NCBI GenBank assembly: GCA_018435605.1
Contig: JAHDNF010000002.1
Span: 324,538 to 388,537, forward strand
DNA from: a bacterium
Lineage (GTDB): Bacteria; Auribacterota; Auribacteria; Auribacterales; Auribacteraceae
Direction: 5' to 3'
Length of the DNA: 64,000 bases
Below, piece by piece: positions 1-42,674 of the stretch (the stretch's first letter is position 1; the number at the start of each line of letters is the position of its first letter). The translations under genes were made by a program, and so were the position numbers. The notes beneath the pieces are model-generated. The model worked only from the letters and a program-made list of their open reading frames with translations. It did no database searches and was not told the origin of the DNA.

Positions 1-3000
1 GATTCCACATCTTTAAATGTAATGGGTGCGTTCTGATAATATACATTATCGGCCGTACCTATATCTTCTTCGTGATACCCGCGTTCCCAGTCGCGGTATT
101 CGTGTTCAAACACCGCTTGAAGAACACGTTTGGCCTTAGCCTGTTCGAACGGCTCCATTTCAGCGACATACATTAATGTACTGAGATTCATATAAAAGGT
201 GCTTCTTGTACGTCCTGCGTGAGCCAAAGCTTCACCGCTATGGAAAACCCCATCCCAATCTAGTAACATGGTAAGAGAAAAGTCTGTTAATTTGTCAATA
301 TACGCCGACGAACGAAGCACGTCTAATCCCAGAATCAACGCATTACGAATACGTTCTTTGGCGACAGGCTCGGATAATTCACGGGTTAACCGCTGTTGTG
401 CCGCATCGGGAAGTTCGTCAAAAAGCATCTGAAGGTTTTTAGCCATTTGTTGAGGCGAACCTTCGAACAGCGGATTGACAATATCCTCGGCTATAGAGCG
501 TTGAAGGTCTTTGAGCTCCAAACGTACAGCCTTGCCTGCCTCTATGTTCTGCCTGATGATCTCATTGACATTGACAACATATTTACGTTTAAGATCGGTA
601 TCCGCCTCATCAATTCCCAGATCGAAATCCAAGTCCATATCCGGTTTAGATTTGACATCGATATCTCTGCCCGCCGGCAACGGTTCGTCCATACCGAATC
701 CCAGATCGAAATCCAAGTCCACGTCCTCAGCTTGTGTCTGAATTTGCGACAGCCGGACGCTGATAGGTACAACCGGCTCATCCAGCTCGAAAAATATTGC
801 TTTATCCGCAAACCGCCCGTATACCGCCATATCATTTTCAGAATTTAAATACCGGTCAAATAATTCACCGGTAAAAATGTCGTATAGACTTATTGTATCT
901 GACCGCTTAGAAAAACTTTCGGCAAGTGTCCGTATATTGATTCCGAATGTATCGTTGCTTATCAACGCCATATAATGCAATACCAGATCAGCCTGTTGAG
1001 GATACATCTGCAATACATCCCTCAAAACAGACGTAGATTGGATCAACGAATCATGGTCGAATATCCCTTCCGGCATTAAACTCTGGGCAATGATGTTGTT
1101 CACAGCTTCGGACAAACCGGCAAACGATTTCGTATCAATTTGTGCGCTTAAACTCATCACCTCTGTAACTACAGGGCCTCTGAACATAAACGGCACACTT
1201 TGTACAACCTCAGGCAAAGAATAAGTGGTAACCGATTTGAAAAGCCGGTTGAAATCGGCCAAACTCAAGGCAATATCCTCTCCGAGTTCTATACTTATCT
1301 TTTTAGAAGTTGCGGCTGTCAATTGTTCGAGTGCGGCATATTGAGCCGCGCCATCCTTTATGGCGCTAAGGAAGTTTACTATTGCGTCAATATGATTAGC
1401 GCCGATATCAGGATCAAGCGTCCGTTCGTCAATGAAAATGCGCGCAAGACCGGATGCTATATCGCTTAGTGATTGTCTTTCGTTTTCCGACAGTAGCGAC
1501 TGGCGGTATCTATTGGCAAGAAGTTCGTATATAGGCTTGAATCCCATGGCGGCAATGTGTGGAGGCACACCTACTTTCCGGCGAAACAGTTGAGAAAATC
1601 GGTCGAAAGTCATGTTGGTCTGCGCCAATATCGCATCCATAACAGCTTCACGGGCTTCGACCCCATGGGCATTGAAGAAAAGATTTATGAGATCGCCAAA
1701 CAGGTTTAAAGCGTCAGTGGTATCGCTGGTTATCAGCTTTGCAATTTGTTTTATCTCCTGATCCAATCCATCAGGTAGCTGACTTACGACGTTATCCGAT
1801 ATCCTGTCGTTAACCCGTGCAGGATCACCCACTATATTAAGTGTGTCTAAAAGATACATAGTCCCCTGCTGGCCGGTCAAAATGTTTCCGTCGGAATCCT
1901 GAACAGATACCACAAATTGATGCTGTTGGGCTCCTACAGAGAATCCTCCGAATCTCCTTAGCAATTCAAAATCGTTACCGTCGGCATCGGCAGAGTCACC
2001 TATTTTAAGTAATCGCTGGACATCAAGTTTCAATAAATCCGCTACTGTGGTTAGAACAGCGCCCTTATTGGTAAGAGACAATTCGACTTTATTGCCGGAA
2101 TGACGTCTTACCGCTACATTGTTAGCGCTAAGATAGTTTTTAAGTTCCGGTTTTTGATCGAGAAGAGTTTTAAAGTCATCAATATTCCTATTTAAGAATA
2201 ACGAATAGCGGGCGGCAGACAATTCTTCCTGTTGAATTCCGAATTCACCCAGCAGATCGCCGGCAATTTTTTCTTTCATATTGTGCGCCAGCCTCAAATT
2301 CAACGCGCTCGTTTCGATCATTTTTTCTTTATCGGTCGACGCATAACCGTAAGCCCCGTTTTCGACAAACACGTATAAATTAGGATGTTCGATACCGCGA
2401 ATATCCGGATCGATTTGATTTTGCGTACGGCCGGTAAGGATAACTACCGGAACACCCGACTCTACAAGCCGGCTGATACGCTCTTTCATTTCCGCAGAAA
2501 GCATTTGTCCTTCACCAACCAAAGTGCCGTCAAAATCTAACACCACCGCATTGTACATAGAATCGCGCACATGCTGTTTATAACGATTTATCACTGCGTC
2601 GAACACATCTGAGCCGACTGCCGATCTGATCTGATCAAGATTATAATCCGTAGCGTCAAGCAAATTACCGCTGAGCATATTATCGATCATCAATAAGAAT
2701 GCGTTGTACGGCTGATCCTGTTCATTTTTCAACGTATAGCGTTGTGCTATATCCAGAGGTATTCCCCGCAAAAGTTTGTTTATATTACTTATATATTCCT
2801 GTTGCGCAGGCGGTATCCGGTCTGCCGAGACGCTAAATACGGCTTGTAGTTCAGCCTGAGTCATAAGCCTATTATCGACCGCTATTGACTTGATCAATTC
2901 GTCCGGTGTTTTTACAGCAGGTTCGACTCTGACAACCGCAGAATTGGCGCGTTCCTTGGCGTCACGTATAGCCAACAATTGGCTTAGATAAGCGTCAAGC

Positions 3001-6000
3001 TGGCTTGCGCCGCTATAATCCGCAAGATTGGTAGTTCTGTCGCCTTCTTCATACAACACTCTGCCTGCACGGTACAACACACGTCCATTTTCTGTTCGGA
3101 TGTACTCTTCGAGTTTACCCATTACTTCTATTTCAGTGGCGTCATCTATCCGATCCTGTTTGAACGCCCATTCTTCACCGGCGGCAAACCGCGAAGTATT
3201 ATAGAGATACGAGTATACATCGATATCAGGATGGTCTACTGCCATCATTCCCATAAACAGCAGATTCGCAAGCCCTTTATGTCCGATATCTACAAACCGT
3301 ATAGAGGATACTCCTTCATTTACTCCGGAATACTCGTATATGATCGGTGCTATCAACTCCTGCGCGGCGAGAATATTTTCTCTGATATTAGAGATCAGTT
3401 CGAGAGGCGTCACCTTTTCAGGTTGGGATGTAATAGGGTTGACTATGGTTTCGCTCCGCAAAAACGATTTTTGCGCCTGTAATTGGGCGAGCGCAGTTTC
3501 AGGGGATTGTGCTGTGGCAATGGTTTTGTACATTTCCATGAAGCGCCGTGCCATTTCTTTACCTTCAACAGCATAGTCTGCTTCCATATCCGATTCGTTC
3601 ACACCCTGTTCGCGCGCCATGGTTCGCTGGATTTCATGGTATATCATAGTTACAACTGTTCGTATTTGAGGCACGTGTTCTTCGAGAAATGTCCTTCCGG
3701 CTGGAAGCAGATAACCATCCACATCGCCGCGCAACGCACGCTGATACAAATAAAATATGTCGCCGTCGCGGGTGAGGTATACCGGAGTAACATTTTCGCC
3801 CGGGGTGTTATAAAGCATGGATTCGATAAAGTCTCCAACCCGTTTAGCAGACTGCTCATAAGAATCAAATTTTGAGAATCCTTCTTTGAAACGATCTATA
3901 AAACCGGCATGATCAGGATAGAATTGTTTTGCTTTGTCACTTCGCAATCGTACAAGCTCTTTGACTTCGGCTTCGGTAAATGTTTCTATGCCGTCCATGG
4001 AATTGAGAAGCATATCTATTTCATGACGTATTACTGCCTGATCCATAACGCGGTCTTCCGATTTCGAAACGCCGAAAACAGCGAACGCCAGCCCAGCCAA
4101 CGGAATATTTTTACCATTATTTTGTTTAGATACACGAATAGTCTCCAGATCGGCAAGCAACTGTGAACGGCTGATATCAGGCATGAAATGCTGTACCGTT
4201 TCAATAACCGCTTGAATTTGCTTTTGCGGATAACCCAGAGGAACAAGATACGCCATTATATCCTGTACTATATCAGCCTGTTGATCGGGCAAGGCGCCGA
4301 GTTCCAAACCATCTTTGAGTTGAAAAGCGTCCAACTGATCTGAAGAAACCTGTTTTTCCGGCTGTATAGCCGACGAAGATTTGTCGCCGAATACAGCCGA
4401 TACGATATCGGCATGACGTCCTCCGGCAAACTGTATGATTTCACTGTACATCTGTTGCACAACAGCCTTATCGAAAAGCGTTATTACAGTTTCGCCGTCA
4501 AGCGTATATGTACTTCCGGAATCGACAAAGTTTTTCAAGTTCTGCATAGATTCCCGCACAACTTCCGGATTCCGGTTTTCTCGAATATTTTCTATCCATA
4601 TTCCTATCTGCCTCATTATATTGAGATTGTCCTGTTGAGCCTGCTTCAAAGAATCCGGAATATACCTGTTAAGCGGTATGACACTATCATTAAGAAGTGC
4701 GGAAAGGCGTTCATTCAATAAATCGGAATAATTACGCGGGGTTTGGGCTATTTGTTCAAGTCGAGTGCCGGCGGAAACTTGTGAGTCATGAAGCAACTCG
4801 TCATGCAACAGCCCCATTTGATAAGGATGTATACGCGATTGCCCGAAAATATCTGCGACCGCAACAACGCGCGCAGTAACAATGGCATCCATTACAGCTT
4901 CTTTATATTGCGCAGTAAGATTCTCAATCCTCAGCGCCGGAAAATATTCTCTAAGAAACTGTGTCAAAATCTGCGCGTTTTCGCCGGTTATGGGAATATC
5001 TCCCTTGAGCATCTGATATATGCTGTTATCATGCCGAATTTGCGCGGCTAGTTCGGAACCGGTTAGATGTTCGGTTCGGCTGATGGCATAACGCAGGCTA
5101 CCGACTTCCCTCAGTGACAGCAATTCAGACCAGTACCGGTCAATATGTTTTCGATAAACTGCAAGAACCGCGCCGTCAGCGGCGGAAACAGCTCCGTCAA
5201 GAATGTTTGTGCCCTGCGATTTTGCAAACCCTACGGCCTGCAAATAAGCCGCCATACGCGCTACTGTATTTGAGCGTTCGGCGTCATTAAGCGCAATCCC
5301 TTTCATAACAGCGTCGATAAAATCGAGCATTTCATTGGCATGATGTTCGTTATGATATGTAAGTATATCCCTTTTGCCGGATGGGTCTGTAATTTGTTCG
5401 ATGGCAAACAATCGAACCATTTCTAAGCGGGAATTTTCAGGATACGACTTCAGCGCAATGCCGGCAGAGGTTAAATCAGAGCCGGTTCTTTGCGCAACGA
5501 TATTTTCTACTCTACGTTGTTCCTGACGCAGATAAACATCTTCCATTGCGCCTTTACCGAACACATCTTCGAGGCTTTTAGAAAAAAACACTATCGCATT
5601 ATCGAAGGATGTGTTTGTCAACATCTGTTCAAGAGATGATCTAGCAATACTACGGATTTCAGCGTCACGGTTGGTCTGAGTGATTTGAACTAACCGCCTG
5701 ACGACTCTTTCTTTTTGCTGTTCTGTCAATGCGGATGCATAGCGTGAACTGAGTTGACCTAGCAGAAAAACATCCGTCCGGTTCAGTTCAATTTCCGGCG
5801 ACATCAAGTAATCAAAGCGCCGTGAAATTTTGTTTTTCGGACTATCCATTATATGTTTTGCGACCATGGTATCCCAGAAAGACAATTCTATAGGTTTGAA
5901 AGATTCTATAACCTTCTGAGACGCAACGAACGGCTCGGCGGCTGTAGCTACAGCCAGTTTTTTATTGACCTCTCCATTGTTAAGTATTTGGTGTAATTTA

Positions 6001-9000
6001 ACACTACTTTTTGCAACGTCAGCGGCGCTGTCGGCACGTCCCTGAATAACAGAAATATCCCGCGCTCTAAATTGCGGTTCAATGGTAGAGAAGTCGAGTT
6101 CGATCATACCTGTGCTGACTACAGGACGGGAAGTAACCATTACAGCCGGTTTGCCGTCTTTTTCAGTCAAGCGGTCTCGAAACTGTTCATACTGTTCGGA
6201 GTTGACTTTCATGATAGGGCCGTGTATGAAAAATCGCGCGGCGTATTCCGGTTCGAGTCCCAAGGAAATTTCAAGAGGTTGCGCTCCTTCGACGGGAATG
6301 ACTATTGTTTCCCTATCCCTGATGGCTTTTACCGATATGGCTGTCCGTGGGGGCGCGCGTGGGTTGACGGATGTCAAAATAACGTCGCCGGTAACTTCGT
6401 CTCTGCTGATAACAAAATCTATTACATCTTCGCCGGCCACAAAGGAAATATCCAGAGCGCCTTCCGCATCTGGGCTTGAGGGTAGTTTGCTACGATCGAT
6501 TTTAACGGAATCCTGTTGCAATTCATAGGGAACGTGGATATCCGGATATTTCACCAGATACACTCCGTCAGCCCGTTCAACCGCAACAGCGGAATTGCCG
6601 GCGGTTTCTTGAACGAACCCATCTTGCTCGCGTAACCGGTCATACTCGGATTGAGACATCATGCGAAAACCGGGCGCTTTACTGCGCAACATAGCAACAT
6701 CGGCATCGGATAACCGCAACGCACGGTCGCCCATATCGTTAAAAAACCGTTCCACAGCGGCTTGAAGTCCTGCGATATTTTCTGTTTCTGATATGATACG
6801 CAAAGACTCGTCAATCAGCTTATCTCCTATCGCCATACCCCATTCAAAATTGGTTGCGCCGACATTGTTTCCGTCAAACCGGTAAATAGTGAGTTTTTTT
6901 GTTTTAGAATTCCACTCTGCCTTTGCGTATTCGTCGCCGCCTACGCGGAATGTGCGCAAGACATCTTCGTCAGGCTGTGTTTGCAAGATATAATTTACCA
7001 GCCGTTTGAAATTTTCGTTGCCCTCGAAAATATATTCTGCCTGAATATTCGGTGACTCATACCGCACAAAGGTCTCGACAATTCGATCATTGAGCTCCGC
7101 CAGTAGCCACGGTTTCTGTGCTTTTTCAATGGCGTCCAGATAATTGTCGGTCAGGCTTTCTATGCTGGTATAGCTTGTATACCGAGGCGCAATGGGAAGA
7201 TGAAATATCTGGTATTCGTTTTTAAGTCCGATATTGAGGTTTTCCAGTATTTGGCTTTCTGCTTTTTCAGAATAGGTCATGATACCGCTACGCATTACTT
7301 TGCCGGCATCCTGTACTACCTGTTTGAACATATCTACCAGATCGCGGTCGGTAAGTTTGTCTTTACCGGACAAGGCCAGAGCGCGAGTTGTCTCGTATAA
7401 AGAGCTGAATTGCATCTGCTGATGTTTGGCAAGTATGAACGCCTGATTATACAGCTGATCGGTAGACTCGGCCGCTCTATGTATACGCGCTTCGTCTACG
7501 ATACCTTTTTCGCCTCGCAGTACATCGGTGATTCCTCCATACATATGTATATTGGCAGGCAAAAATCCTTCGTTCATTGCGGAAGCTATAGCGCCGTAGC
7601 GTTCATTGCCGAGCAAATCATGCAAGGCGTTTTTAGATTCATCAACTACCCGTTCTTTAAACGACGAATCCGGACTTTCTATAGCAGAGCGCAAGAACCC
7701 CGACACATCGACGTTGCCCACATTAGTAAACGTAACAAAATATTCCGCTCCCGCGTTTCCTATATCTACTGTAATTCCGTAAGGCGAAAGCATTTCATTT
7801 AAACTCTGACGCAAGACATTGCTTATCACCTCAATTCCTACATCGCCGAGCATATGACCTACCCCGAGTTCGGAACCGAATGTATTGAAAACCCCTTTAA
7901 AATTTTGAACTTTAAGATAAGCCAGCTGGACATCTCTGCCCTCGGATATTTTTTTGATGGTATCTTCTTTATGAGCACGAACATTCTGGGCGTATTTCGA
8001 TGTTCTAGAACCGTTGACAACATTACTGACAAACGAGAACCGCCACAATTGGTCGCTTCGAATCATATCGGAATTGACGGCCGCTCTGGGTAACGCCTGC
8101 ATTTCCTGCTGTAACTCCACGGGATATGTAGACTTGCCTTCGAATTCACCGCGATTTGCTATTAGATCAATAAGAGAGCTTCGTATATACCCCGCGTCGC
8201 GTATATCGTTTTGTATAACATAATTTAAAATGGTAGCAAGGTTCGTGTACCCATCACCGAGTTGAGTAATGACATTCAGAGCCGCCGCCTGACGGTTTTT
8301 GCCTGCCTGCGGGTCAGGATTTTTTGCCCATATATCGATAAATGACTGAACTTGATTTTCCAATATAAACAGTTCCTGAACCGCCGGATTGATAGGAGTA
8401 ATTTTAGGATTGATGCTTATGCCTCGCAAACGCTGGCGGAGCATGCCCTGCTCGACTTCGATGCGCAGTACGTCGTCGTTTAGCATACCTTCCGTAAACA
8501 GGTTAATATCGACCACTACGGTATTGGGCTGGGCGGTCACTTTGTGGCGCATCTGCACACCGTCTACAAATTCAAAAAAAGCATTTTTGTATTCCTGCTC
8601 CGTAACCTTGTGAACCTGCTCGAGTTCCTGAGATATACGCTGAAGCCGCGAACGTATATCGTCCCTGCGGTCAAAATCGTAACCGTATTCTGCGCTGAAA
8701 ACTATATTGCCGGAAATCCGTCCCCGGCCTACTATAGGTCTGCCGAGAATAGGAATGACCATATTCATTCGCGCGTTGATCGCTTCTTTGAAATCGGAGT
8801 CTGTAAAAATCGTGGACACAACGTTGCGAACAATTTCGCGTATATCCGGATTAACGGTTTTGTTATATGCAAGAGCAAGCAAATATACGCCTTTACTCTT
8901 TTGTTCTGCCGACAGCAGATGAGGGTAGGAAGTCAATATTTCACCGAGCATATATATATCGGTTGTATTGAGTAAATCGTCTTGCGCCAGCAACAGCGCC

Positions 9001-12000
9001 GCACGCCGTGCCATTTTGTCCTGATAGCTTTCAAGAATATAATCGGCGATCATAGAATCCCACGAAGAGAACTCTATATCCTGAAATGACACCATTCCCT
9101 GTGCTGAAGCGACAAAAGGACTACCGGCATGCAAATACGCCAGTTGCGCGTTAACTTGTCCGTCGTTCAATATTTGATAGTGTTTGACAGCTTCTTTCGC
9201 ATGATCAGCCGCTGTGTCGGCGCGCCCCTGTATTACAGATATGTCTTTATTGCGAAACTGATCGTCAACTCCTGATAAATCCAGATCTATATACCCTGTG
9301 CTGACAACAGGACGCGATGTAACCATCACCGCCTGTTTGCCGTCTTTCTCGGTTAGGCGGTCGCGAAGGCGGTCGAACTCCTGTTCGTTGACAGTCATAA
9401 TATCACCGTGAATAAAGAAACGTGTAGCATACTCATGTTCAAGGGTAAGGGAGATGGTGATAGGTGTTTTTCCTTCGACAGGAATGGTAATAGTTGCTCC
9501 TTGTCGAATCTGTTCTCCGGTTATGCCGGTTGCAGGAGGAGCTCTAGGATTTTTGGATGTTAAAATAACACCGCCGGTCGCATCGTCACGGATTATGACA
9601 AAATCGACCGCCTCGTCGCCTGCCCTGAGAGTTACCGGCATGGCAGACGCATCTTCCGAGTCAAGGGGTAACGTACTGCTGTCAACCTTGACTTGATCCT
9701 TCTGTATAACGTACGGAACATGGATATCCGGATACTTCACCAGATCGAAATTCAAGCCCCGTTCAACCACAACAACACTGTTATTGGCAGTATCGCTGAC
9801 AAAAGTACCCGCTTTTACCAAGGCGCGATATTCGGATTCGTTCATCAAACGGAAATTGGGAGCTTTGCGTTGTAGTGTCTGCATTTCCTCTTCGGTAAGT
9901 GTTAACGCCCGGTCGCCCATATTGTTGAAAAAGTCTGTTACCGCAGACTGGAGTTTGCTGACATCTTTTATTTCGGAAATGATACGCAAAGATTCATCTA
10001 TGAGTTTGTCACCTATTCGCATACCCCATTCGAAGTTCGTTGCGCCGACATTGTTGCCGTCAAAACGATAAATAGACATCTTTTGAGTCGCCGCAGACCA
10101 TACAACTTTGCTGTACTCATCGCCTCCTACCCTGAATGTGCGGTCAATATCAAAAGCGGGCGATTCCCTCAGAATATAATTTATTACACGCTTGAAATTT
10201 TCATTGCCCTCATAGATAACGTCGGAAACGAGATTGGGCGAATCGTATCTTAGCATAGTTTCCAATACACGGTCGTTGAGTTCCCGCAGTGTCAGCTCAT
10301 TCGCGCCTTGGTCTACTGCGTCGCGGTAATTCTTTACCAGCTGGTCAATGCTGGTGTAACTGTGAAAACGAGGGGCGATGGGTAGTTGGAATATTTGATA
10401 TTCGTTGGACAACCCGAGTTTCAGGTTTTCCTGTATATCCTGATATGTTTTCAAAGAATACACAGTCAAGCCACTTTTCAGGACTTTAGCGGAATCCTGA
10501 ACCACGGTCTTAAAAAGGTTAACCAGTTCATTTTCGCTGACAACGTCTCTTTGCATTTTCGCTTGATCGCGGACAGTCGCGTATAGATCGCTAAACTGCA
10601 TCTGTTGATGTTTGGCTAAAGCGAACGACTGGCTGTATAACTCATCGGTAAGCTCTGCCGCACGCCGAGTCCAATCCGCGGTACTAACCCCGGTAAAACC
10701 GGTTTTACCGGGTAACACTGCGGTAAGACCGCCGTACATGTTTACCCGTTCAGCCATAAATTTAGAGTCAATATCCTGTTCGATACCGGCGTATTGTTCG
10801 GCTCCGATAATACTTTTGAGAGCGTCTTTGGTTTCCTGAACGACCATTCGCTTGAATTCCGATTGAGGGTCTTCGAGTATATTGCGAAGTACCGACTCAA
10901 TATCGGTTACGCCGACATTGGAAAACGTGAGAAAATATTCAGCTCCTGCATTGCCGATATCAACGGTAACGCCATAAGAAGCCAATTGTTTTTCCAGTTC
11001 TTTTTTCAATACTTTGCTGACAACAAAAATGCCTGCGTCGCCTAATGTATGTCCAACGCCAAGCTGTGCTCCCAGAGTATTGAAAACATCTTTGAAATTC
11101 TGTATTTTCAGATATGCCATCTGCACGTCGCGACCATCTAATATACGATCGATAGTGGTTTCCTTATGAGCCCGCACATTCAAAGCATATTTGGATGTTC
11201 TAGAGCGACTTACAAAATCGCCGATTTGAGTGTACTGAAGGAGATTGGCAAGACGCTGAGTCTCCTGAGGAATAATATCCAGAGCTGTCGAATAACCGTA
11301 ATACGACAAATGTTTGCGAACAAGTTCGGGGTATGTTGTATTTTCCTGTAATTTCGGAGACACTATCCGGTCTATTAAGGTATCCCTGATTGAAGAGGCA
11401 GATGAAATTTCGTTATCAAGAACACTGCGCAATAAAGCAGGAAGACCCTCATATATACCGCCTAATTTTTCCAGCGAAGCAATAACATCTTTCTGTTTAG
11501 CGGCTCCAACGGAAGAATCGGCATGAATATTGGCGATATCAATAAACGATTGCACATATCGTTCTAAGATAAACATCTCGCGCAATCCGTGGTCGATATC
11601 GGCTACTTCAGGTTGCATGGACAACTTATCCAATTGCATGCGTATAAGACCCGATTCAATTTCCATCATCAGGAGTTCTTGATTAAAAACCGAGTCTTCA
11701 AACAAATTTATATCGAGTACCAGCGAATTGGTAGCGGATTGAACACGCTGAGCAATCGTCGGGTTTTTCACCAATTCGAATTGAACCGAGTTATAGACAG
11801 ATTCGGTGGTTTTATTTCTCAGTTCGAGTTGTTCACCAATCTTTAAGAGCATTTCTCGGATACGATAGCTTTCTTGTGAGTTTATGTTACTTTCCGCATT
11901 AAAGAATAGTCCTATTCCGGCTGACCCACGCGCAACAACCGGATTGCCTATAATCCTTGTCAACTGAGACGGACGTGTGGATACTAGAGCGGCAAACTCA

Positions 12001-15000
12001 GGATGTTCTACGATATCGGTCAACGCGCGGCTGATGAGCTGGCGGGTTTGATAACTCACGTCCGGCACCCATGCGTCCATGAGGCGGTTAATTACTGCCA
12101 GTTTGGTTTCATCATCCATTCGGCTATGAAAATTTAAGGAATATTCGCGTAGCATTGAAATGTCCGTAGGATTCAAAGGAATATCAGGATTAAGCAGATA
12201 ATTGAGGCGGTATTTGAATTTCTCAGACGGATTTTCAAGCAGAAATTGCGCTATCATGGTATCCCACGATGAGAAAACAGTTTCTTTGAAAGACACAAGT
12301 TCTTCAGCCGTGCCTATAAACAAATCCGCGGCATGACGAACGGCAAGGGCTGTATTTACCTGTCCATCGTAGAGTATTTGAAATGTCTTCACCGATTCTT
12401 TGGCTATATCCGCGGCTGAATCGGCTCGTCCCTGTATAGAGGCTATATCTCTATTAAGATACTGCGGAGCGATTTTAGATACATCTATCTCTATATATCC
12501 CGTGCTTACCACCGGACGGGAAGTTACCATTAAAGCGGGTTTGCCGTCTTTTTCGATCAGGTTGTCGCGGCGTACTTCGTAAGCCTGCTCGTTGATGAGC
12601 ATGATATCGCCGTATAAGATAAATTTAGGGCCGTATTCCTGCTCCATGTTGATCGTAATGGAAAGCGGCTTGCGTCCCTGAATAGGTATGAATATTTCAG
12701 CGCCGTTTTGTATTTGTTCCAGAGAAATGACGGTTGACGGAGGAGCCCTAGGGTTGACGGAGGTCAGAATAACCCCACCTGTAACTTCGTCGCGCACCAT
12801 CGTAAAATCGACTACATCGTCCTCAGCGCGCAGGGTAATCTGCATAGCGCCTTCAGCGTCCGGCGATAAAGGCAATTTACTGCTGTCAAAATGCAGGTTA
12901 TCTTTTTGCAGAATGTAAGGCACGTGAATATCTGGGAACTTAACAAGATAAAACCCGTCTTCTTTTTCTACCGCTACAGCCGATTTATCGGCAACGAGTT
13001 GAGAATAAGCGTCCGTGCCTCTTATCATTTGATAATCGATCTGTGAAATTATATGAAAATTGGGCGCTTTGCGTTGTAGCATTACCAGATCTTCATCGCT
13101 CAGCTTCAAAGCACGGCTACCCATATCATTGAAAAAACTCGCTATATTGTCTTGAAGTTTGGCTATGTCTTCCGTTTCCGATATGATACGCAGAGATTCG
13201 TCAATCAGCTTATCGCCGATAGCCATACCCCATTCAAAGTTAGTAGCGCCAACATTGTTGCCGTCAAAACGGTATATGTTCAGTTTTTTTGTTACGGCGT
13301 TCCATGTCACTTTGCTGTATTCGTCGCCACCGACGCGAAAAGTAAGATTCACATCATTTTCGGGCTGGGTCTTTAGAATATAATTAATTACCCGTTTGAA
13401 ATGTTCGTTGCCTTCCCAAATATCTTCGGTAGTTATATTAGGGGATTGATACCTAAGCATAGTTTCAAGCAGACGGCCGCGCAATTCCTGTGTATGCCCG
13501 TACAGATACCCTTTTTCAATCGCATAAAGGTACTGTTCGGATAAAGCGTTGATAGACCTATGGTGCTCATATCCCGGAGCAATTGGCAGATGAAATATCT
13601 GGTATTCGTTTTTCATTCCCAGTTGACTGTTTTCATTAATTTCCTGCATAGCCTTGTTAGAATAGGGCAAGATAGCGCTTTCCATTACCTTAGCCGCATC
13701 CTGTACAACCGGTTTGAACATATCCGCCAGTTGCACCTCAGTGGCATTAGAAACGGCCATACGCAAACGCGCCCTCACAGATTCATACTGTTGAGAGAAT
13801 TTCAATTGCTGATGTTTTGCAAGCTGGAACGCCTGACTGTAAAGCATGTCGGTTTTCTGCGCCGCGCTTTCTATCAATTCGGTCTCTGTCAGCGCGGATT
13901 CAGACGTCACGCCGCGCACAATTTCGGTCAGGCTTCCGTACATATGTATATTAGCCGGCAAAAACCCCGTGTTTAGAGCGCTTTCTATTGCCGAGTACGC
14001 CTGTGGGGACATCATCTCGCGCAGAGCCTGTTTGGTTTCTCTGACAACTTCTTTGCGGAAATCGGAAGATGGATTTACAATCATATCGTTGAGGACAGAG
14101 GTTATATCCACGGTTCCAACATTTGAGAAAGTGACAAAATATTCCGCGCCGGCGTTTCCTATTTCCACCTCTATGCCGTATGGGGACAAACGTTGTTCAA
14201 GAGCTTCTTTAAGTACTTTGCTTATAACCATAATACCCACATCGCCCAGCAAATGCCCGATACCCAATTCCGACCCGAAAGTATTGAATACTCCTTTAAA
14301 GTTCTGTACCTTCAAATATGCCAACCGCACATCTTTACCATCAAGTATGCGGCTGATGGTCTGCTCTTTATGGGCTCTGACGTTACTTGCGTATTTGGAA
14401 GTTCGGGACTGGCCGACCATATTCCTAAGCAAATTAAAATCCATCAGATTTTTCATATGCTCAAGATTATATTGAACATCCATGGGAGTCATAGATGCCA
14501 GCTCATTTTGAACTTCTACGGAATAATTGGATAAACCTGAGAATTGACCTTGATTAGTTATCATCTCGATCAACAAAGGCTGTACGGCGGTTTCGTACTG
14601 GATATTGTTATCGATAACATGGCGCAGTATCTTAGCGATAGCGGTATATTGGTCGCCCAAAGTCTTTTCCATAAGATCAACTACAGCCTGCTGGCGTGTT
14701 CTGCCTTCTTCAATTGAGGCGGAATGAGAAACTATGTCGATAAACGACCTTACATACTGCGTTAACGAGAACAATTCTATAGCCGCTGGGGACAACGGCA
14801 TCATTGTATCGGTAGCGCTCAACTGTTTTAAAGTCGACCTAACGACAGCCTGTTCAACCTCAAGGTCAAGCAAATCGGGATTGGCTTCCTTGAATAATGA
14901 AAAATCCAACAACACCGATCCGGCTTCCATAGACGACTTCTGAAAATTCGTCGGACGATCAGCAAGAGAAAACTTCAGGGCGCGGTACTGTTGTTCCGAT

Positions 15001-18000
15001 ACCTTCTGAAGCGATTCAAGACGTTCTCCGACAGAAAGAAGGGTATCGCGAATGGCAGTGCGCTGACGCAAAGTGGTATTGCTGTCGTTGCTGAAAATAA
15101 GTCCGGAATCCACTGTACCACGGGCAAAAATAAATCCTTTGAATATCTTTACGTCTTTTTGTGTCTGGGTATCATTGAGTTTTTCCCATTTTTCCATATC
15201 GGCGAAAGGAGCGTAATTTTCGTCTTTGGATAGTTTAGCAGTCAGACTGCTCAATGCGCGGGTTATTTCTTTGCCGCGCTGTACCTTGTCAGGAAACCGC
15301 TCTGTAATAAAGTCGATATACTTCTGCTTGAACTCTTCAGTTATCCACAGGTAAGGCAACCTCAGGCCGGTTTTATCACTCCGATCTTCAATAATCCGGT
15401 AGACTTCCTGAGTCAACACGCTAAAATCCGATGTCACATGATCTTTTTCCATTTGACGGATTTTATCGACTACAGCATCTACCGTTTCAGGCGAAACAAG
15501 TTCGAGAATCAAAAGAATCATAGGCAACTGATATCGAATTTTCGGATTATTCGGCGTGTAATACTTGAACAACTGATTTTTTACCCACATATGCTGTATA
15601 ACATCTATTCCGAAAAGTGTGTCGATATTTTTATAAAGAGTTTCACGCTCTGCTTCGGTAAGTGTAGTTTCCGATTCCAACCGAGCTACTATAGCCATCA
15701 GCGGGGCATAAACTGCATACGCTTCCGCGGAGTTAACATTCTGGTTAACAGGGCTATCGTACTGATCATCGAGGAAATGACCTAGTTCGTGTTTTTTATG
15801 CAACTGCTCCATCAATGCCGCAAGGTCTTTATCAGACACATCAGCGATGTGTTTTTCTATAACTGCTACGATTTCGTTGGTGGCACGATTTTTCTCCAAG
15901 GTTTTCTTGATACTGTCGATACTTCGTTCCAAAGATTCGCCGGTTTCCATATAAATAATATGAGCGCCGTTGGGATATCCGGGTATGGGGTACACCTCGC
16001 CGCGCAGTATATACTGAGCAGGCGCAATGGGCGCAAATGGATCTTTTACCCTGTCGCCTCGGAATATCAGTACGGTTTCTTTACGTCCTTCTATATCGAC
16101 CACATGTTCTTCCACAGCGTCATTGTAAAAATCGACAATACCTATTCCGTTAAATACGAATCCTGTATGGAAAAACAAATCGGCGTTGATGCGGGTACGA
16201 AAATTTTTGAGTAGTAAAGCGCCTTCAAGTCGGTCATCCAGATTCTCGCTGGAGGACAAAGTTTTAATCTGTTCCACATTTAGGGCATATTCACGTAAAT
16301 GTCCGGCGGCATTGGCAAACCCCCGTGACTCTATCAGACGTGCAAAGCGTTCCAACTGATCACGCATATCTTGAGTTACTTCTTCTGTAGTATTTATGGA
16401 ATTGATCAGTTTTGCCAGATCAAAAGCGAATTGCACCCGTTCTTCTGAAGAAAACACGTCGATTACCGGCAATTCTCCTTCCTGTTGCAGATGCAATCCT
16501 GAAGTATATTCGTTTAACACGCCCTGCAAATCCGATAATTGTCTTAGCGTGACGCCGGACTCTAAAAACACCGGTTCAGCGGTTTTCTTTCTTATTTGCG
16601 TGATAACGCTCTTATCTATAATTGCCCATTCCACAGTAGTGCCGAGAATGTTTTTACCTCTGACAATTCCATACCCCTGAGCGAGCAGTTCATTTATGCG
16701 CTGTTCGGATAAACGTTCGACCTCGCCGTTGCGCTCGGCCTCATATATTTTCACTTGCGGATTTATTACCACTTCGTAAATCGTCGGCGTACCTTCAGCC
16801 ATGTTGGCATATCGTTGAGCCTTGTCGAGATTTTCCTGTCCGAGTGTATAAAAACCGCCGTAATTTCTGCCTTTTTTACCCTGTTTGGTTTGACCTTCTC
16901 TGCCTAATACTTGCACATCAGTCATCTGCATGTTGGGGTTAGGCGAACCGTGAAGCAATACCAGTCCGTCCTGCCGTTGTTTTGCCGATTCCTCGCTTAC
17001 TATCTTGTTGATTTGTTGCTGGGCGATTTGAATGAAATCGAGACCGGCGACCGGATCGGCCTTCAATATGCCCGCAAGCAAGATATCAAATGAATATGCA
17101 TCGCTATAAACTGCCCGAGCCTTCTCATCCATATACGAAGGTATGTTTTTCTCGAACATCTGGTGCATAAACATAATCATTTCCAACGGCGTCTCAAGAC
17201 GGGAGGTTACCCCCATGTCGGCTATTGTTGCCGAGTAAGTTCCGTCTTCTTTTTGTGTGATAAAAAAGTTTTCCGGTTTGGAGTCAGACATATACCACTG
17301 AAAACCAACGTTTTGCGCCTGTTCGAACAATGTTTTTACGACCGACTGCACCACAGCGCGTATACGTTCTTTATAGGCCTGTTCGGATTCGCCTTCGCGC
17401 ATAAACAGTAACCCGCCGGATGCTTTGCCGTATTCCAGTTGCAATAACTGCGTACCTTCAAGCAGTTGTTCGGTATAGTAATGATATCCGCCGCGGCCTT
17501 GATCGTACAACGCCCCTACCGCAGGAACAACCCCTTCACTTCCGGTCACAGGCGAGGAAAGAATAATTTTCGCGACCTCTTCGTCAAACCGAGTATGAGG
17601 CATTTTTGGTTCTTTAAGAACAAAGGAATATGGTTTTTCGTGACTATCAATTGTAACGGTAATTTTATGTACATTCTTAAAATGACCGCTACCGACATAC
17701 CTGATGTCAATACCGGTTATATCCGCCGCGTTAATACCGGTCAAACCATGAAGAACGAAAAGCATTTCAAAGATAACATTCGTGTCTTGCAGAAACTTTT
17801 TCATCTCGCGTACTTTTGCAGGACCGTGATTTTCGCCCATATCGTAAAATGGGCCGTACTGGTCGGTATATTCGGCTCCTGAGGTAATCTTCCAATTCAT
17901 CTGAGCGGATTTATCTACAGTTCCGGCTACAAAAGCATCAAGCCTTTTAGTAAGGGATTCAAGATGAACTCGTGCTCGTTCGCGCAATACATCGTTTTCC

Positions 18001-21000
18001 GAATTGACAGCCCACCACAGCAGTTCCTTTCTGATTGCGCGAAAATCATCGGCGTCATTGAAACGAGCCTCTGCAAGCGCATCCATGAGCGATTGTGTAT
18101 TTTCTATGGAAATTCCGGTTAAAGGTTTATCTTTTAGAAGATCGAGAGTAGATACAAGCGATATAATTTGAATTTTGGCTAAGCCGAGTAGCTGTTCAAG
18201 CCGTTCTTGAGCGAGGGGCACAGCCGAAATTTTATCGATAAAAAGCTCCAACCTCTTGTCAACAGGAGCTTCCATATTGGCGATATGATGATATTCCTGC
18301 TCCAGCTGTATAGCTTCCTGCTGATTAGCACGCATGTACTCGCGAAGCGATTCAACCACTCTGGCACGGGTTAATCCCAAACCGCTTACAGGCACATCAG
18401 TCCATCGGGCGGTTGACGGCAATCCTGCCAACTCCATAGCTTTTTTCTGCCACAACATCATTTCGAGGGCTTCATGGCGCGCCATGTTTGCATCGTAGGC
18501 GTATTCGGCAATGTAAATTGCGTTACGGCGTAGTCCGGCATGGGCTTTCTGTGATCCGTACAGGCTGGCTAGCCCTTTAACCACGTATACTTCTATTGTC
18601 TGCCCGTGTACCAAAATATCGTCTTTGCGCTCGAGACGCTCATCAAATATTGCTTCACGGATGACGGCATTGACTGCGGCATGTGTCGCGGCGTCAGTGC
18701 CGATATCGGCGATATTTATATCGTTTAAGTATGCTTTAAGGGTTTCATAAACGGACACAAGGTCGGCAACAGTCCATTGCAAGGAACCTATGGATATCGC
18801 GGTTGCTGAATCAGGCCGTCCGCTGAGGAAATTAAGATATGTTTCGAGCGAACGGAAAGCATCCTGAATAAAGGCGACAGTTTGCGGTGAGGCTACTCCT
18901 AAAATAGCAGAGATAAGTTTATCGAAAGATACTGTACTGTCGAATGAATCCAACGATTCCTGATCGTGGGCGATTCGATTTCTAATTCCGTCCACAAGCA
19001 AAGCTTGTAAAACCAGTAACGCCTCGAACGGCTGTCCGAGCGTTTGAGGTAAAGAAAGCGTGTCTACGTATGCGCGGAAAGAATCGTCGTTAACGACTGA
19101 TTTAATTATATCAGCGTAATCGGCCTGTACAGAAGCAAGGTCAAACCGGTTGCGTTCCAGTTGGTCGATCAGGGTCATTGCCGCTCTAACAACGGTTTCT
19201 CCCATGCGTTTAGCATACGCAGTAGACGACTCAACAGCGGATTTTGTCAATAGTTGTACAGAGGCGGCCGCGGAACCAGACTGACCGGCAAGATATATGT
19301 CAATTCGCTCTAACGCGGTCTGAACCTGCCGGCGGCTCCATTGCCCGCTAGTTAATTCCGTTCCGATCAATATGGCGTCAGGGTTGGTATTGCCCTGTTC
19401 CAATACGTTTTTCAATTCACTGCGAACCGACTCTATAAACTGTAACGCGCCTTGCGGGTCGGCCTTCGCAATTCCGCTCAACAAAACGTCTACGGAATAT
19501 GTTTCATTGAAAATAGTGTTCATCTGTTCTGAAGAAGCTACCTGATGAGTCGCCAGTCTTCTAAAAAAAGTGTCCAGAAACAGCAGGATATCGGTTTTGC
19601 GCGTGAGCGTTCGCGACTGTCCGAAATCGACAATTGTCGCCTCGTATGAACCGTCCTGATTTCTATGCAAAAAGATATTATCCGGATTGGTGTCGTTATA
19701 GATATTTGAAAAACCGGAATTGGCGGCTTGTTTGTATATAGCTTGTGATACTGCGGATATCATATTTTCAAGTCTGCTACGGTATTGAGTAGCTGATTCT
19801 CCTTCCCGCATGAAAATCTCGCCTTCTTTTTCAAACGTATGGCGTGATGCAACTTTACTGCCGGGCACCAGCGATTCAGTATAATACCTGTCGCTGGCAT
19901 ACAAATCATCCGCCGGCGTGCTGACTCCGGGAGTTCCGGGAGGGTAGAGGTTTCCGAAAACAGGAACAACTCCGCCGGTTCCGTCAAGATTGGAAACCAG
20001 CATTATATCGCGAGCTTCCCGTTCGAACATCGCATAAGATTTTTTTGACTCGTTGAGGGCAAACCGGTACGGACTGTTGTGGCCTTTTATATTGATTGTA
20101 ATGCTGTGTACATATTTGAAATTGCCCGTACCGAGATAGCCGATTTCGATCGAGGTAATATCCGCCGGATTGATATCGGTCAATCCGTGAATGACAAACA
20201 ACATTTCTTTAACAACATCGCTCTGTTGCAGAAATCGTGATATTTCGCGAATTTTTTCGGGTCCGTGGTTTTGTCCCATATCGTAAAACGGGCCGTATTG
20301 ATCGTAGTATTCATTTGAGGCTTTTATTACCCAATTGGCACGCGCTTGAGCGTCTGACGGGTCGGATAAAGATTTCCTAAGGACATTTTGCAGGTCTGCC
20401 ATATATAGTTCTGCCTGCGAACGAACGGGAGAATCGTCTTTGGCGTACACGCTCCACCAAACCATTTCACGGCGGATAGCCCTGAATTCTTCAGCATTGG
20501 CATACTGCTGGTTGCGTAATTGCCCCAGCAGATCTAGTACCTGCCGAATACCCTGATCGTCAAGCCCGGTTTGCTTCATAAGATTAAGTTGATCGAGAAT
20601 TGAAGCGATCGCAGGACTAAGAGTAAAAGCCTGCCGGCCTTCTGCCGCCTGCTGTACCGACTGTACCCTGTTATCGTTTACAAGTTCACTTGTAGCGGTA
20701 ACCTGCCCTACAAGAAGCGCCTGTTCGTGAAACTCCTGCTCCATTTGCCGCGCCAGATCGGGATTGTCTTTGATCCATGCGCGAAGCTGGTTGGCAATAC
20801 TGCCGCGTTGACCACCGAATATACCGCCTGACAAGGAATTCCAATCCATGCCTGAAGACAGCCCGGCAATCACAAGCGCCTGCTGTTGCCACAATCTAAG
20901 TTCAACGGCCTCATGCATTACAAGCTGTTCGCTGTATGCCCCTTCGGCAATATAAATCGCATTATTGCGTATTCCGGCATGCGCTTTTTGGTCGCCGTAC

Positions 21001-24000
21001 AACACGTCAACGCCTTTGATTACGTATACAGATATTTGCTGTCCGTCTACGGTAACATCAGGTTTACGCTCGACTGCATTATTGCGGTATGCGTCTCGAA
21101 TTGCCGCGTTGACAGCCGCGTGGGAAGCGGCATTTACTCCGATATCCGCTATATTCACATCGTCAAAAGCTTTTTCCAGCTTCGACTTGAAATCGCGCAA
21201 CTGTCCCATGGATATTCCGGTTTCACCTATTAAAACTCCGAGGTCACTGTCAGGTTTGGCGCTATTTTGATCGAGAAAAACCGTCAAATCAGTCAACGCC
21301 TGGCGTACAAAATCTATGCCGTTGCGTGAAGCGTTAGATATGAGTAGCTGAAGGAATGCATCGAGGGTCACCTCATTTCCTGCAAGGTCAAACGAAGTTT
21401 TATCGCCCTGTATCATATTACTCAGCGCTGTTTGTATACTGATAAACGACAGAAGAATATCGAAAGCTCTACCGGTACGTACAGCACCGCCTATATCTTC
21501 TATCAAGGCTCTAAACGAATCGCGGCCTGATACCTCCAAAAAGACGTCTATTAAATTTAGCGACCCGATCATATATTGAAAATTGTTAGATTCGGCAAAT
21601 GAGAAAACGGCATTTACAAGCGCTGTTGTCATTGCCTGTACACGGCTAAGATACTGATCTTCGGTTTCTTCAGCGTCTTTGATAAACGGAGACCGTTGTA
21701 TAATTCCCACTTGAGGCACGACTTCTTGGGTTAATGCATGATATCCTTTGTCGAGAACGTATTTCTCGGCGTACATCTGAAAACCGCCGGTAAGCGCGGA
21801 ATCCATTGAATATGCGTTAACAAACTGGGCCACAGGTGATACCGCCGTAACGCCCGTTGCAAGGCGCATACGCGCCTGTTGCCCGATGCTCGTTTGAGGA
21901 TTTTCTACTCCTTTGATAACAAAACTGTATTCTTTACCTGCAACGACAGCCGTTACTTTATACGCCATCCGGCCTGTCGGCGCAAAAAGCTGTTCGACCG
22001 TAAAACCAGATACGGATTCTGGTTCGATATTTCTCAGTCCGTGTAATACGAACAATGCATCCGATAAAACGCTCGTTTTTTCGAGCATATTCCGTACAAT
22101 AGACTGCCGGTTAGCATCAATATTTCCTATGAATTCTATCTTGCCAGATACGTCCGGCATAGACAGCGAACCGGATGTCAGAGATTTATTCAACAAATCC
22201 ATCAGGCTGGTAGCCAAATTTGCCAATTCGGTGTTACGCGACGCCACAGCCCAATATGCCAATTCACTGCGTATCGCGATAAAATCAGAGGCTGTACGGT
22301 AATCTTGAGAAAGCAATGCATTGAGATGTCCTTTAAGCGCGTCAATCTCCGAGCCTGCGAGTTCTTTTCCTTTATATGAAGCCAAGACATTGAGCGCAGT
22401 TTGTATCTGTTCTGCGGAAGAAACCGTAGGTTGAGACTGCCGAGGTTGAGCAGGTGTATAGGCAGGCACTGCGTCCTGTCCTGCAACCATAATAATGCCG
22501 TTGAATTCTATTGTACCGTTTTGATGAATACGCGACACACTGCCGTCCGAGTGAACCGCAACCAATACCTGAGGGCTTTCGAACCGGACAGTAGCAATAT
22601 CGACCAGTCCTATGAGCTCTCGATCGAGTTGCTTGCTGAATACGGTGACACGAGTGCCGTCATGTTTATGTATGAAGAAAAAATCATTTTCCTCAACACG
22701 GTTACCGTCGCGCATATCAATTATGTCCTGCGTACGCGAAACGCTCGGCGCGGAAGGTTCGTTAAATTCGGTATATCCTGAAGCGGCGTCGAGTATTTGC
22801 TCTTTTTGAGCCTGTTCGCGCAACTGGCGTAACTGTTCGGCGACCTGTATTTGTTTTTCAAGCAGTTCCGGTGTTGCTTCGAGAAGCGATACTGCAAGAG
22901 TAGTTCCTTTTCCCAGTACATTGAACAAATCCAGCGAATACGCCTGCATATCAACGATAACCGGTTTGGTCAAATCTGCAGGCGGATTTAGGAAAAATGA
23001 AAACCAGAATTGCTGTGGCACTCCGTTTTCTATGGTTATAGTAGTTATCCCGTTGCGATCTATAAAATTGCGCACTGCCGCGGGCAATATGCTACGGTCT
23101 TGGGCAACCTGCCATTCATAACGCGACTGAGATGTTTGCTCATGCAACCGGGCGATCAAACGTGCCGGCGGAGCGATTTCAAACCGTTGGTTATCGGACA
23201 TAGTAACAAGTCCAAAAGTAATCATACGGTTGACCAACGACCCGGGATTCAAAGAAGCCAAATCGTTGACAGATATATTCAGTCCGGCCAGCCGGTCGAG
23301 TATTTGTTGTTCGGATGCGAGCAGTTGTGCTCGAGGTTGCTGTAACCGTTTAATAATCCCTGCAACGGTTGCCTCGTCAATGGAATCGAAATTGCCAAAC
23401 AGCGGCATAAGAGAAGCGATGACATTATCGGTTCTGGCTCGCAATGCAAACATCTTTGCCTGATAGGCCTCGCCATCGACTATATCGATCGGCTTGCCGT
23501 TGATTGTGGCTGTAAGAAGCGGATTTAGATCATCCATTTCTTCCTTGGCGATTTCAAAAAATACAAACGGGGTATCGCCGATCACAAGCGACACATCGAG
23601 ACCTCCGTCGGGAGACTGGGTAATATTGATTCTCGTAAGTTCGTCGAACGAGCCTTTCGCCCATCCTTTGAGAAAAAAATTGTTAACGATATCGGTGAAA
23701 CTTTTTATGGCTTCTTCCGACGAAACTATCTGTCCGTCCATTTTAGCGAATTTCCCGACAGCGTATGCCACCAGCAGGCTTTTCATCTCCACCTTAAAAC
23801 TTTCCGCGCCCTTCTGGTCGATCAAAGGAGGGTTGCCCAAGCGTGACGCTACGGCCAGTGTGCTGGTTTTTTCGAGGATGTTTTCAAGGCGCTTGGCAAA
23901 CGGCGATTTCTGGTTCATCATCATGGAAATATAGGCGCTCTTGTCATCGCTACTGTGAATTACCGGAGCGACAACGTAATAGGAAATACCCTGCGCTTTA

Positions 24001-25391: not shown

Positions 25392-25893
25392 GGCGTACAG
25401 CTCCTTTGTATATATTTGTATATTCTTTATTTCTATAATTTCCGAAAAACATAATATCCTTTCTGCCAGCAATATAGCATGTGCCGGAGCTTATCATTTT
25501 CATTCAAACGCAAAAAACTTCATATTAAAATAAAACTATTTTAATATAACAAAGTCTTTAAGAATCAACCGAAAAACCTTATGCAAAACGAAAGTATCAG
25601 GCGATAGGACACACAATTACTCCAACCAATCTAAGCTCGTATCTCTGTAAGATTGGTTCGCCTATACATTCTCACCGGCATTTCTCGATTTTTCAGAAAG
25701 CCTTATAAAAATATTTCAAAATCAACTATTAGATTCAATTTGCATAAAAAAGCTATAAATTTTTATCTATTCCATATAATATATTGTATCATTTTTTTTT
25801 GAAGAATACAATGTAAGCGGTACGTTTGCATACATAATTATAACAATTCAACCATAATATAATTACTAAAATCACTTAAAAAAGAATACAGCC

Positions 25894-26838: not shown

Positions 26839-26840
26839 TT

Positions 26841-27389
26841 ATGAAACAGATAGTAGCGCTGACAGCATTGGGGCTTGACAGGCCTGGAATCGTCGCCGCG
26901 GTAACCAAGGTACTGTACGAATCGGGGTGCAACCTTGAAGAATCAAGTATGACTTTACTGCACAACGATTTTGCAATGATTGTACTCATAAGTATGCCCG
27001 ACACGACGACGCTGGAAAAACTAAAAAATGCAATACAGCCGGTAGCGCATGAAATGGGTTTGAGCGTCAATTTCAGAACATTGTCCGAGCGTGAGATTTC
27101 AGATCATAATCAAGAATCTTTGCCAAACTACTCGCTTTCTATATACGGCACAGACAAACCGGGAATTGTATACCGCATCACATCTTTGCTGGCAAAACAC
27201 AAAATCAATATCATCGATCTTGAAACTCAGTGTACCCGCTCGCGACAGCCGCTATACTCCATGGTTCTCGACATAACCGTTCCGGAATCGCTCGGTGAAG
27301 AATTTTTAAGCAGGATGCTTGCAGAGTTATGCAACGAGATAAAAGTCGATTTTTCTCTGGAACCGATCACATTCTGTGAAGAGATGTAA
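26841..27389 (+). CDS. Tandem ACT-domain protein (GcvR-like regulatory protein)
   Basis: 182 aa with two ACT-like halves (LGLDRPGIVAAVTKVL... and GTDKPGIVYRITSLLA...). Starts 3 nt after the upstream gene stop. Confidence 0.55.
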   Translation: MKQIVALTALGLDRPGIVAAVTKVLYESGCNLEESSMTLLHNDFAMIVLISMPDTTTLEKLKNAIQPVAHEMGLSVNFRTLSEREISDHNQESLPNYSLSIYGTDKPGIVYRITSLLAKHKINIIDLETQCTRSRQPLYSMVLDITVPESLGEEFLSRMLAELCNEIKVDFSLEPITFCEEM

Positions 27390-27391
27390 AT

Positions 27392-27910: not shown

Positions 27911-27914
27911 GGTA

Positions 27915-35867: not shown

Positions 35868-35907
35868 CAAACCGTTGCTATAGAGATTATTTTAAAAGGA
35901 GGCCTGT

Positions 35908-36465: not shown

Positions 36466-36475
36466 AAGGGTCTAT

Positions 36476-42662: not shown

Positions 42663-42674
42663 CGGAGTTCATAT

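Follow-up and report, generated by a model that had tools for sequence, protein, structure and literature searches.

Does a phosphatase-like domain lie inside a giant bacterial protein that may be secreted, and is it likely to work as an enzyme there? This question is raised by a stretch of 64,000 nucleotides, here called the window, from contig JAHDNF010000002.1 of assembly GCA_018435605.1, the genome of an uncultured bacterium of the phylum Auribacterota. One end of the window is occupied by an open reading frame (ORF) for a protein of at least 8,463 amino acids. An earlier reading of the letters, referred to below as the original prediction, had recognised a HAD-IIB (Cof-like) domain within this ORF, at window positions 2400-2560. 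The analysis presented here finds that window positions 1812-2603, on the minus strand, encode a genuine HAD-IIB domain, far beyond chance resemblance. The domain carries all four motifs of the HAD superfamily, adopts the corresponding fold in a confident structural model and belongs to a conserved subfamily, and it is probably an active phosphatase.

A HAD-IIB domain in a giant reading frame

The reverse-complement translation of positions 2400-2560 (...MYNAVVLDFDGTLVGEGQMLSAEMKERISRLVESGVPVVILTGRT...) reproduces exactly the protein segment reported earlier, with motif I and the LTGR of motif II. This segment, MYNAVVLDFDGTLVGEG...VPVVILTGRT on the minus strand, represents the first fifth of the domain and contains motifs I and II only. 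The complete domain covers amino acids 7597-7860 (264 residues; 1812..2603, minus strand), as supported by Pfam, NCBIfam, AlphaFold2, Foldseek and a profile search of PDB sequences. The features that characterise the HAD superfamily are all found in it, namely a motif I of the form DxDx(T/V), a Ser/Thr in motif II, a Lys in motif III and an acidic pair in motif IV. Motif I is DFDGT (residues 7619-7623; 2523..2537, minus strand), in which D7619 is the putative nucleophile and D7621 the putative general acid/base, followed by T7623. Motif II is TGR, with T7653 (2427..2435, minus strand). The two further motifs, which the original prediction had left to be sought downstream, are present on the same strand as K7776 within TNKG (2064..2066) and as GDSADADGND, with D7799 and D7807 (1971..2000). 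In phmmer alignments to YidA and 3pgv, motif IV contains a four-residue insert (GDS-ADAD-GND) relative to the canonical GDxxND. Beyond it lies a C-terminal extension, GGFSVG...D..G..L.G..G...LL (1812..1958, minus strand), which is specific to a subfamily and also occurs in P0001, P0002 and other subfamily members.

The family assignment is based on two profile libraries. Pfam PF08282 (Hydrolase_3) matches with E=5e-15 and 56.3 bits (cut-off 20.9), and NCBIfam TIGR01484 (HAD-SF-IIB) matches the isolated segment with 49.3 bits (cut-off 41.8) over profile positions 2-215 of 221. Moreover, both halves of the domain align to Cof-type phosphatases when PDB sequences are searched with phmmer, and a profile of a 30-sequence homologue alignment, A3, retrieves E. 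coli YidA at 1.2e-25 as well as 68 other PDB sequences, almost all from the HAD superfamily and mostly from subclass IIB. At a finer level of classification, no equivalog- or Cof-level cut-off is reached: the Cof model TIGR00099 gives 57.1 against 137, PRK01158 (phosphoglycolate phosphatase) gives 49.4 against 198, and the equivalog models for YidA, YigL, MPGP and SPP all remain far below their cut-offs. Because of this, the domain cannot be assigned to a specific substrate family.

The fold was modelled with AlphaFold2 from alignment A3, which gave a predicted local distance difference test score (pLDDT) of 91.3 and a predicted template-modelling score (pTM) of 0.87; a run with the single sequence reached a pLDDT of 47 and was unusable. 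The model displays a Rossmannoid core with an alpha/beta cap inserted between motifs II and III, at amino acids of about 7695-7773 (2073..2309, minus strand). Within model residues of about 100-178, the cap is composed of helices 104-119 and 142-161 and strands 129-131, 135-138, 165-169 and 173-177, a predicted arrangement that is consistent with cap type C2B. Compared with the PDB by Foldseek, the model has 129 matches at E<=0.001, and the best 50 listed are without exception HAD enzymes. The top matches, with E values from 1e-11 to 1e-9, are the IMP nucleotidase 6rme, the BT HAD-IIB proteins 4dwo and 3niw, phosphomannomutases, trehalose-6-phosphate phosphatase (T6PP) and 3pgv. With both libraries above their cut-offs and the HAD fold recovered by AlphaFold2 and Foldseek, the proposed HAD-IIB (Cof-like) identity is borne out.

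Conservation of the subfamily and an exceptional lineage

Homologues were collected by an exhaustive HMMER search with amino acids 7300-8463, which yielded 120 proteins at E<=0.001. A word-indexed search with the HAD segment found two free-standing relatives only, and the giant relatives emerged from the exhaustive search. Similarly, a metagenome scan with the single sequence gave no match, and an alignment-based scan led to the loci L043 and L044. In three giant relatives the alignment takes in the HAD domain together with its flanks, namely in P0003 (5,394 amino acids), P0004 (6,562 amino acids; RJP59437.1 of Candidatus Auribacter fodinae; UniRef name 'Glycosyltransferase 2-like domain-containing') and the fragment P0007. 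A second group of large homologues, with signal-like N-termini, consists of P0012, P0013 (with two HAD copies), P0017, P0036, P0059 and P0085, and many of the remaining homologues are about 290 or about 800 amino acids long. All three homologue groups have a common signature, ENGAYG, GDxxxxxGNDxxLL and GGFSVG...G..G...LL. Judged by these residues, the extended motif IV and the C-terminal GGFSVG extension mark a distinct, uncharacterised HAD-IIB subfamily.

The catalytic positions are strongly conserved. Alignment A3 shows little or no variation in the four motifs, with motif I invariant. Among 100 subfamily members, the nucleophile Asp is found in 98, the Asp two residues later in 99, the motif I Thr in all 100, a Thr or Ser in motif II likewise in all, and the motif III Lys in 99; the first Asp of motif IV (D204) is kept in 98 and the second (D212) in 100. 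This pattern is typical of an active enzyme family. It extends to three of the four giant relatives (P0003/L043, P0004 and P0007), which keep the catalytic residues.

The fourth giant relative differs. On contig Ga0067045_1027531 (L044), motif I at positions 10958-10972 reads NLEGT (AAC CTT GAA GGA ACT), which means that the nucleophile Asp is replaced by Asn and the second Asp by Glu; the remaining motifs are kept. The HAD domain of L044 is nevertheless 65-71% identical to that of L043, close to the whole-protein average of 71%. The domain of this lineage looks like a retained pseudo-enzyme, and the window copy is intact. Most orthologues keep the nucleophile; the loss of both catalytic aspartates in L044 partly realises the outcome that the original prediction had named as counting against it.

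Additional observations concern the smaller relatives. In locus L041 (3438-8737), the gene for the free-standing P0002 has as neighbours those for a PRTase-CE protein and for a 751-amino-acid PfkB+SIS protein, and a PycTM gene is close by. Fusion with PRTase (HAD-PRTase) characterises the homologues of about 800 amino acids, and P0058 has the fused arrangement SIS-HAD. Such associations suggest a sugar-phosphate or nucleotide pathway, or else a conflict system, which is uncharacterised; a search of the literature for a system combining PRTase, HAD, SIS and PfkB returned nothing useful. Taken together with the IMP nucleotidase as the best fold match, the P0002 neighbours and the fusions provide a loose hint of sugar-phosphate or nucleotide chemistry, limited by the fact that the HAD copy of the giant protein is only about 27% identical to the PRTase/SIS-associated relatives.

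The host protein and its chromosomal surroundings

The giant ORF is located at 3..25391 on the minus strand, within a stop-free frame of 3..25490, and begins with the ATG at 25391, which is preceded by a GGAG-containing stretch. It crosses the left edge of the window, and its C-terminus and the downstream genes lie beyond that edge. Self-comparison reveals a modular architecture. A module of about 1,065 amino acids is present in three tandem copies with pairwise identities of 40-60% (amino acids 3401-6600; 5592..15191, minus strand), and a module of 650-800 amino acids is present in three diverged copies (amino acids 970-2990; 16422..22484, minus strand). The HAD domain belongs to a conserved cassette of about 1,150 amino acids (7025-8180; 852..4319, minus strand), which has the same order in P0003/L043, L044 and P0004. 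A further module of about 200 amino acids (8260-8463; 3..614, minus strand) recurs two to four times, at spacings of about 600-1,000 amino acids, in P0003, P0004, P0005, P0006, P0008, L043 and L044, and could lie between cassettes as a spacer or a processing unit. P0003, L043 and L044 have kept the N-terminal 1,000 amino acids and the 7025-8180 cassette, carry three to four copies of the 8260-8463 module and are devoid of the 1,065-amino-acid repeats.

Outside the HAD domain, ten segments covering most of the protein gave no Pfam or NCBIfam match, with Pfam read even at E<=1, and at that same threshold no recognisable enzyme appears in the rest of the HAD cassette. No credible match among PDB sequences came from profiles of the three 1,065-amino-acid repeats or from those of the three kinase-like modules. 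The 1,065-amino-acid repeats contain the invariant strings SRTSKYAxNVRAHKE, FRVGGDEY, YRFDGNNVGATNFEWGM and TSRPVVSTG, of which RVGGDEY, by eye, invites a GGDEF-like reading. Two of the three 650-800-amino-acid modules carry kinase-like D..P.N...D[FM]G motifs, resembling a catalytic loop and DFG, at amino acids 1922 and 2725. Both readings are unsupported because neither has a significant match among Pfam or PDB profiles; for the kinase-like motifs, support is positional only and comes from P0006, in which a genuine Pkinase domain (E=6e-16, accompanied by a weak GT2 match) occupies the equivalent position. In that protein, the Pkinase domain stands upstream of the NIADIG block, and two of the 650-800-amino-acid modules share this conserved block, NIADIG...QKAHAGxRxNAIYIAE...HExxE..W. 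The N-terminal domain of about 600 amino acids (23532-25391, minus strand) has the motif V(V/I)HI(K/Q)DAHCNYDAQ directly after a signal-like segment. The N-terminal 620 amino acids match hypothetical proteins, mostly partial, from Omnitrophota metagenome-assembled genomes (MAGs) at 23-31% identity.

The original prediction had treated the host as an adhesin-type repeat protein. This view does not agree with the architecture just described, since Ig-like, cadherin, RTX or similar adhesin repeats are absent from Pfam and NCBIfam searches, even at E<=1, and the repeats are modules of 650-1,065 amino acids. With large shuffled modules, no adhesin repeats, and Pkinase and GT2-like domains in relatives, the family is one of modular multi-enzyme giants, not of adhesins.

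Export of the giant protein is plausible. A Kyte-Doolittle scan, read heuristically, reveals a signal-like N-terminus (MFFKLKNRFVMRIIALIALESLLSTSIVSA, then D; 25299..25391, minus strand). The sole strong hydrophobic segment of the giant protein spans amino acids 10-28, with a positively charged n-region before it and VSA followed by DD after it, and a hydrophobic N-terminal segment is conserved in L001, L043, L044 and P0122. A Glu is conserved within the segment (LIALESLL, LLLIETMI), an unusual residue in a Sec signal. Furthermore, only 3 of 8,463 residues (0.035%) are cysteines, all within the first 500 amino acids, in comparison with an average of 1.62% over the other 26 window ORFs (binomial P of about 4e-55). 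Cysteine is almost absent from P0003-P0012 and P0036 as well, at 0-0.09% in these relatives. Strong cysteine depletion is characteristic of proteins that are secreted unfolded, and for this reason the secreted state proposed earlier, supported also by the signal-like segment, can be considered plausible.

The giant gene appears to occupy a stable chromosomal position. The genes asd, def, an ACT-domain gene and lpxL lie next to it at 25894-28970, and the order asd, def, ACT, lpxL, giant gene is found in L001, L043 and L044 (asd detected in L001 and L043 only). Because this order is common to three related genomes, the gene would have stayed in place as internal modules were gained and lost. Among genomes, a Candidatus Auribacterota MAG comes closest (locus L001, CAXXKF010000011.1); its Asd is 87% identical to that of the window and its gene order, pel, asd, def, ACT, lpxL and giant gene, is the same. 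The syntenic giant orthologue in L001 shows 63% identity across the first 2,553 amino acids; the locus covers the first 2,559 amino acids of this orthologue, with the HAD region outside it. In the window, pelA-G runs at 29300-44057 on the plus strand, and the giant gene is divergently oriented on the minus strand, with lpxL, the ACT-domain gene, def and asd between them. The giant gene is not encoded within pelA-G or co-transcribed with it. The pel operon is itself atypical: its GH114 protein has only 288 amino acids and is followed by a 724-amino-acid ORF with no Pfam match, and a 654-amino-acid HEAT-repeat protein is encoded between pelE and pelF.

Probable function, alternatives and significance

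Starting from the demonstrated identity, motifs, fold and conservation of the domain, we infer catalytic activity, a substrate class and export. The explanation favoured here, with a probability of roughly 0.6, is that the domain acts as a Mg2+-dependent phosphomonoesterase on a small phosphorylated metabolite and forms one module of an exported giant protein. Following the established HAD mechanism, D7619 would attack the phosphorus of a phosphomonoester to form an aspartyl-phosphate intermediate, with D7621 serving as the general acid/base, T7653 and K7776 holding the phosphoryl group, and D7799 and D7807 binding Mg2+. The full alpha/beta cap would close over the active site, which in this subclass admits only small substrates, for example sugar phosphates or nucleotides; proteins and polymers would not be expected. 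The signal-like segment, the near absence of cysteine and the kinase and GT2-like domains in relatives suggest, in turn, an exported multi-enzyme giant of the Omnitrophota kind. Several points weigh against this explanation. The spacing of motif IV is non-canonical, the domain reaches no equivalog-level model, and catalysis seems dispensable in at least one lineage, because L044 lacks both aspartates and yet its domain is conserved like the rest of the protein. Additionally, the case for export is a heuristic one, and Mg2+-dependent phosphatases acting on metabolites are more usual in the cytoplasm.

The comparison with characterised enzymes is in line with this explanation as far as the enzyme class is concerned. 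The Cof-type HAD-IIB enzymes (YidA 1rkq, BT4131 1ymq, KPN_04322 3pgv) have the same four motifs, Rossmannoid core and alpha/beta cap and provide the best profile matches. However, identity to them is only about 17-24%, the score falls under the Cof cut-off, and the window domain differs by its four-residue motif IV insert and C-terminal GGFSVG extension. Cof-type enzymes are also free-standing proteins of about 270 amino acids, whereas the window domain is embedded in a giant. The ISN1 nucleotidase of P. falciparum (6rme) and the phosphomannomutases (2fue, 7o58, 3f9r) belong to the same HAD subclass and are top Foldseek matches, but their identity to the window domain is 14-18%, the template-modelling scores (TM-scores) are only 0.5-0.6, and the Pfam families ISN1 and PMM give no match.

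Other explanations have to be weighed against an active phosphatase. The L044 orthologue, with its lost Asp pair, its otherwise intact motifs and its average domain identity, would fit a module whose HAD-IIB fold binds a phosphorylated ligand or serves as a scaffold of the cassette without turnover; rare further subfamily members with NFDGT or DFNNT, and a cassette with no other recognisable enzyme, point the same way. This is unlikely for the window copy, as all catalytic residues are intact in it, in three of the four giant relatives and in 98-100% of the 100 subfamily members. It is still less probable that the domain transfers phosphoryl groups as a phosphomutase or phosphotransferase, like the eukaryotic-type phosphomannomutases, instead of hydrolysing its substrate. 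These enzymes and an atypical alpha-phosphoglucomutase do stand among the best fold and profile matches, and the motif IV of phosphomannomutases likewise has an extended form, GDKTxxGGND, a resemblance for which a phmmer search of the C-terminal 85 amino acids (motifs III-IV) against the PDB returned only noise. Yet the Pfam PMM family has no match at E<=0.01, and the profile search scores the Cof-type YidA better than PMM (1.2e-25 versus 5.6e-16). Least probable is the role first proposed for the domain, an action on phosphorylated sugars or polymers of the adjacent Pel system. Proximity speaks for it, since the pel operon lies less than 4 kb from the start of the giant gene in both the window and L001. 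The two are, however, on opposite strands and separated by four housekeeping genes, the synteny kept in L043 and L044 is lpxL-ACT-def(-asd) with pel not visible in the DNA fetched for these loci, some 23 kb of the giant gene stand between its start and the HAD domain, and Pel is not known to have a phosphorylated extracellular intermediate. The proposed Pel link is accordingly not upheld.

A further alternative concerns the location of the giant protein and is independent of the identity of the enzyme. The protein might not be exported and might instead be a membrane-tethered or soluble cytoplasmic multi-enzyme, in which the HAD domain would act on cytoplasmic metabolites. Kinase, GT2 and HAD chemistry normally requires cytoplasmic pools of nucleotides and sugar phosphates, the conserved Glu is atypical for a Sec signal, and a cytoplasm-facing orientation has been argued in a 2026 preprint for many of the giant Omnitrophota proteins that have HAD-containing modules (10.64898/2026.06.07.730766). 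Against this stand the positively charged N-terminus and single hydrophobic segment, which predict the bulk of the protein outside, and the extreme, gene-specific cysteine depletion common to all relatives. A cytoplasmic location is the less likely option.

Giant proteins with enzyme domains are not limited to the window and are on record from the neighbouring phylum Omnitrophota. In the preprint of West-Roberts et al. (2023), HAD_2, GGDEF, NUDIX and kinase domains are among the commonest in giant Omnitrophota proteins, and sugar-phosphate enzymes are predicted to be extracellular (10.1101/2023.11.21.568195). In the 2026 complete-genome preprint, 'HAD hydrolases' form part of a Pfam module that recurs among 916 long Omnitrophota proteins, and a signal peptide or transmembrane helices are present in 94% of these proteins (10.64898/2026.06.07.730766). 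Moreover, NCBI gives the name 'HAD-IIB family hydrolase' to a 2,841-amino-acid Omnitrophota protein (P0059) and to a partial protein of 4,003 amino acids, both of the same subfamily as the window domain. The Omnitrophota giants ('Archaeovorins') also resemble the host protein and its relatives in their very long ORFs, an N-terminal signal peptide or transmembrane segment (in the window protein, a signal-like one), largely unannotated N-terminal regions and domains that include HAD hydrolases, kinases and glycosyltransferases. They differ in several respects: no part of the window protein but the HAD domain has a database match; the window protein belongs to the phylum Auribacterota, is shorter (at least 8.5 thousand amino acids in the window) and has one hydrophobic segment only; and the Pfam family of the 2023 preprint is HAD_2, whereas that of the window is Hydrolase_3.

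A more speculative and improbable scenario extends the export hypothesis. The protein would be a Sec-exported, cysteine-free multi-effector that delivers kinase-like modules, the HAD-IIB domain and, in relatives, GT2 into or onto another cell. The HAD domain would deplete or remodel the sugar-phosphate or nucleotide pool of the target, and the recurring module at amino acids 8260-8463 would separate or process the cargo cassettes. Such a strategy would resemble that of MARTX toxins and would have arisen independently in the Omnitrophota/Auribacterota lineage. The likeness is a functional analogy only: MARTX toxins are also giant, cysteine-poor and modular, with enzyme cassettes shuffled between relatives, but the giant protein has no sequence similarity to them, lacks RTX repeats and contains no protease domain identified as serving in processing, and delivery into another cell is pure conjecture.

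HAD and other enzyme domains in giant exported proteins are therefore already documented, and the presence of an enzyme domain, regarded as unexpected when it was first noticed, is a solid finding and not a surprising one. New here are the phylum, the HAD-IIB subfamily whose motif IV is extended, and a host protein that otherwise has no database matches. The finding delineates an uncharacterised HAD-IIB subfamily, which also occurs in PRTase or SIS fusions. As the only part of at least 8,463 amino acids that is recognised by the family libraries, the HAD domain is the one experimentally tractable handle on these giants, and a phosphatase assay on the 264-amino-acid fragment could yield the first biochemical fact on the Auribacterota/Omnitrophota giant family.

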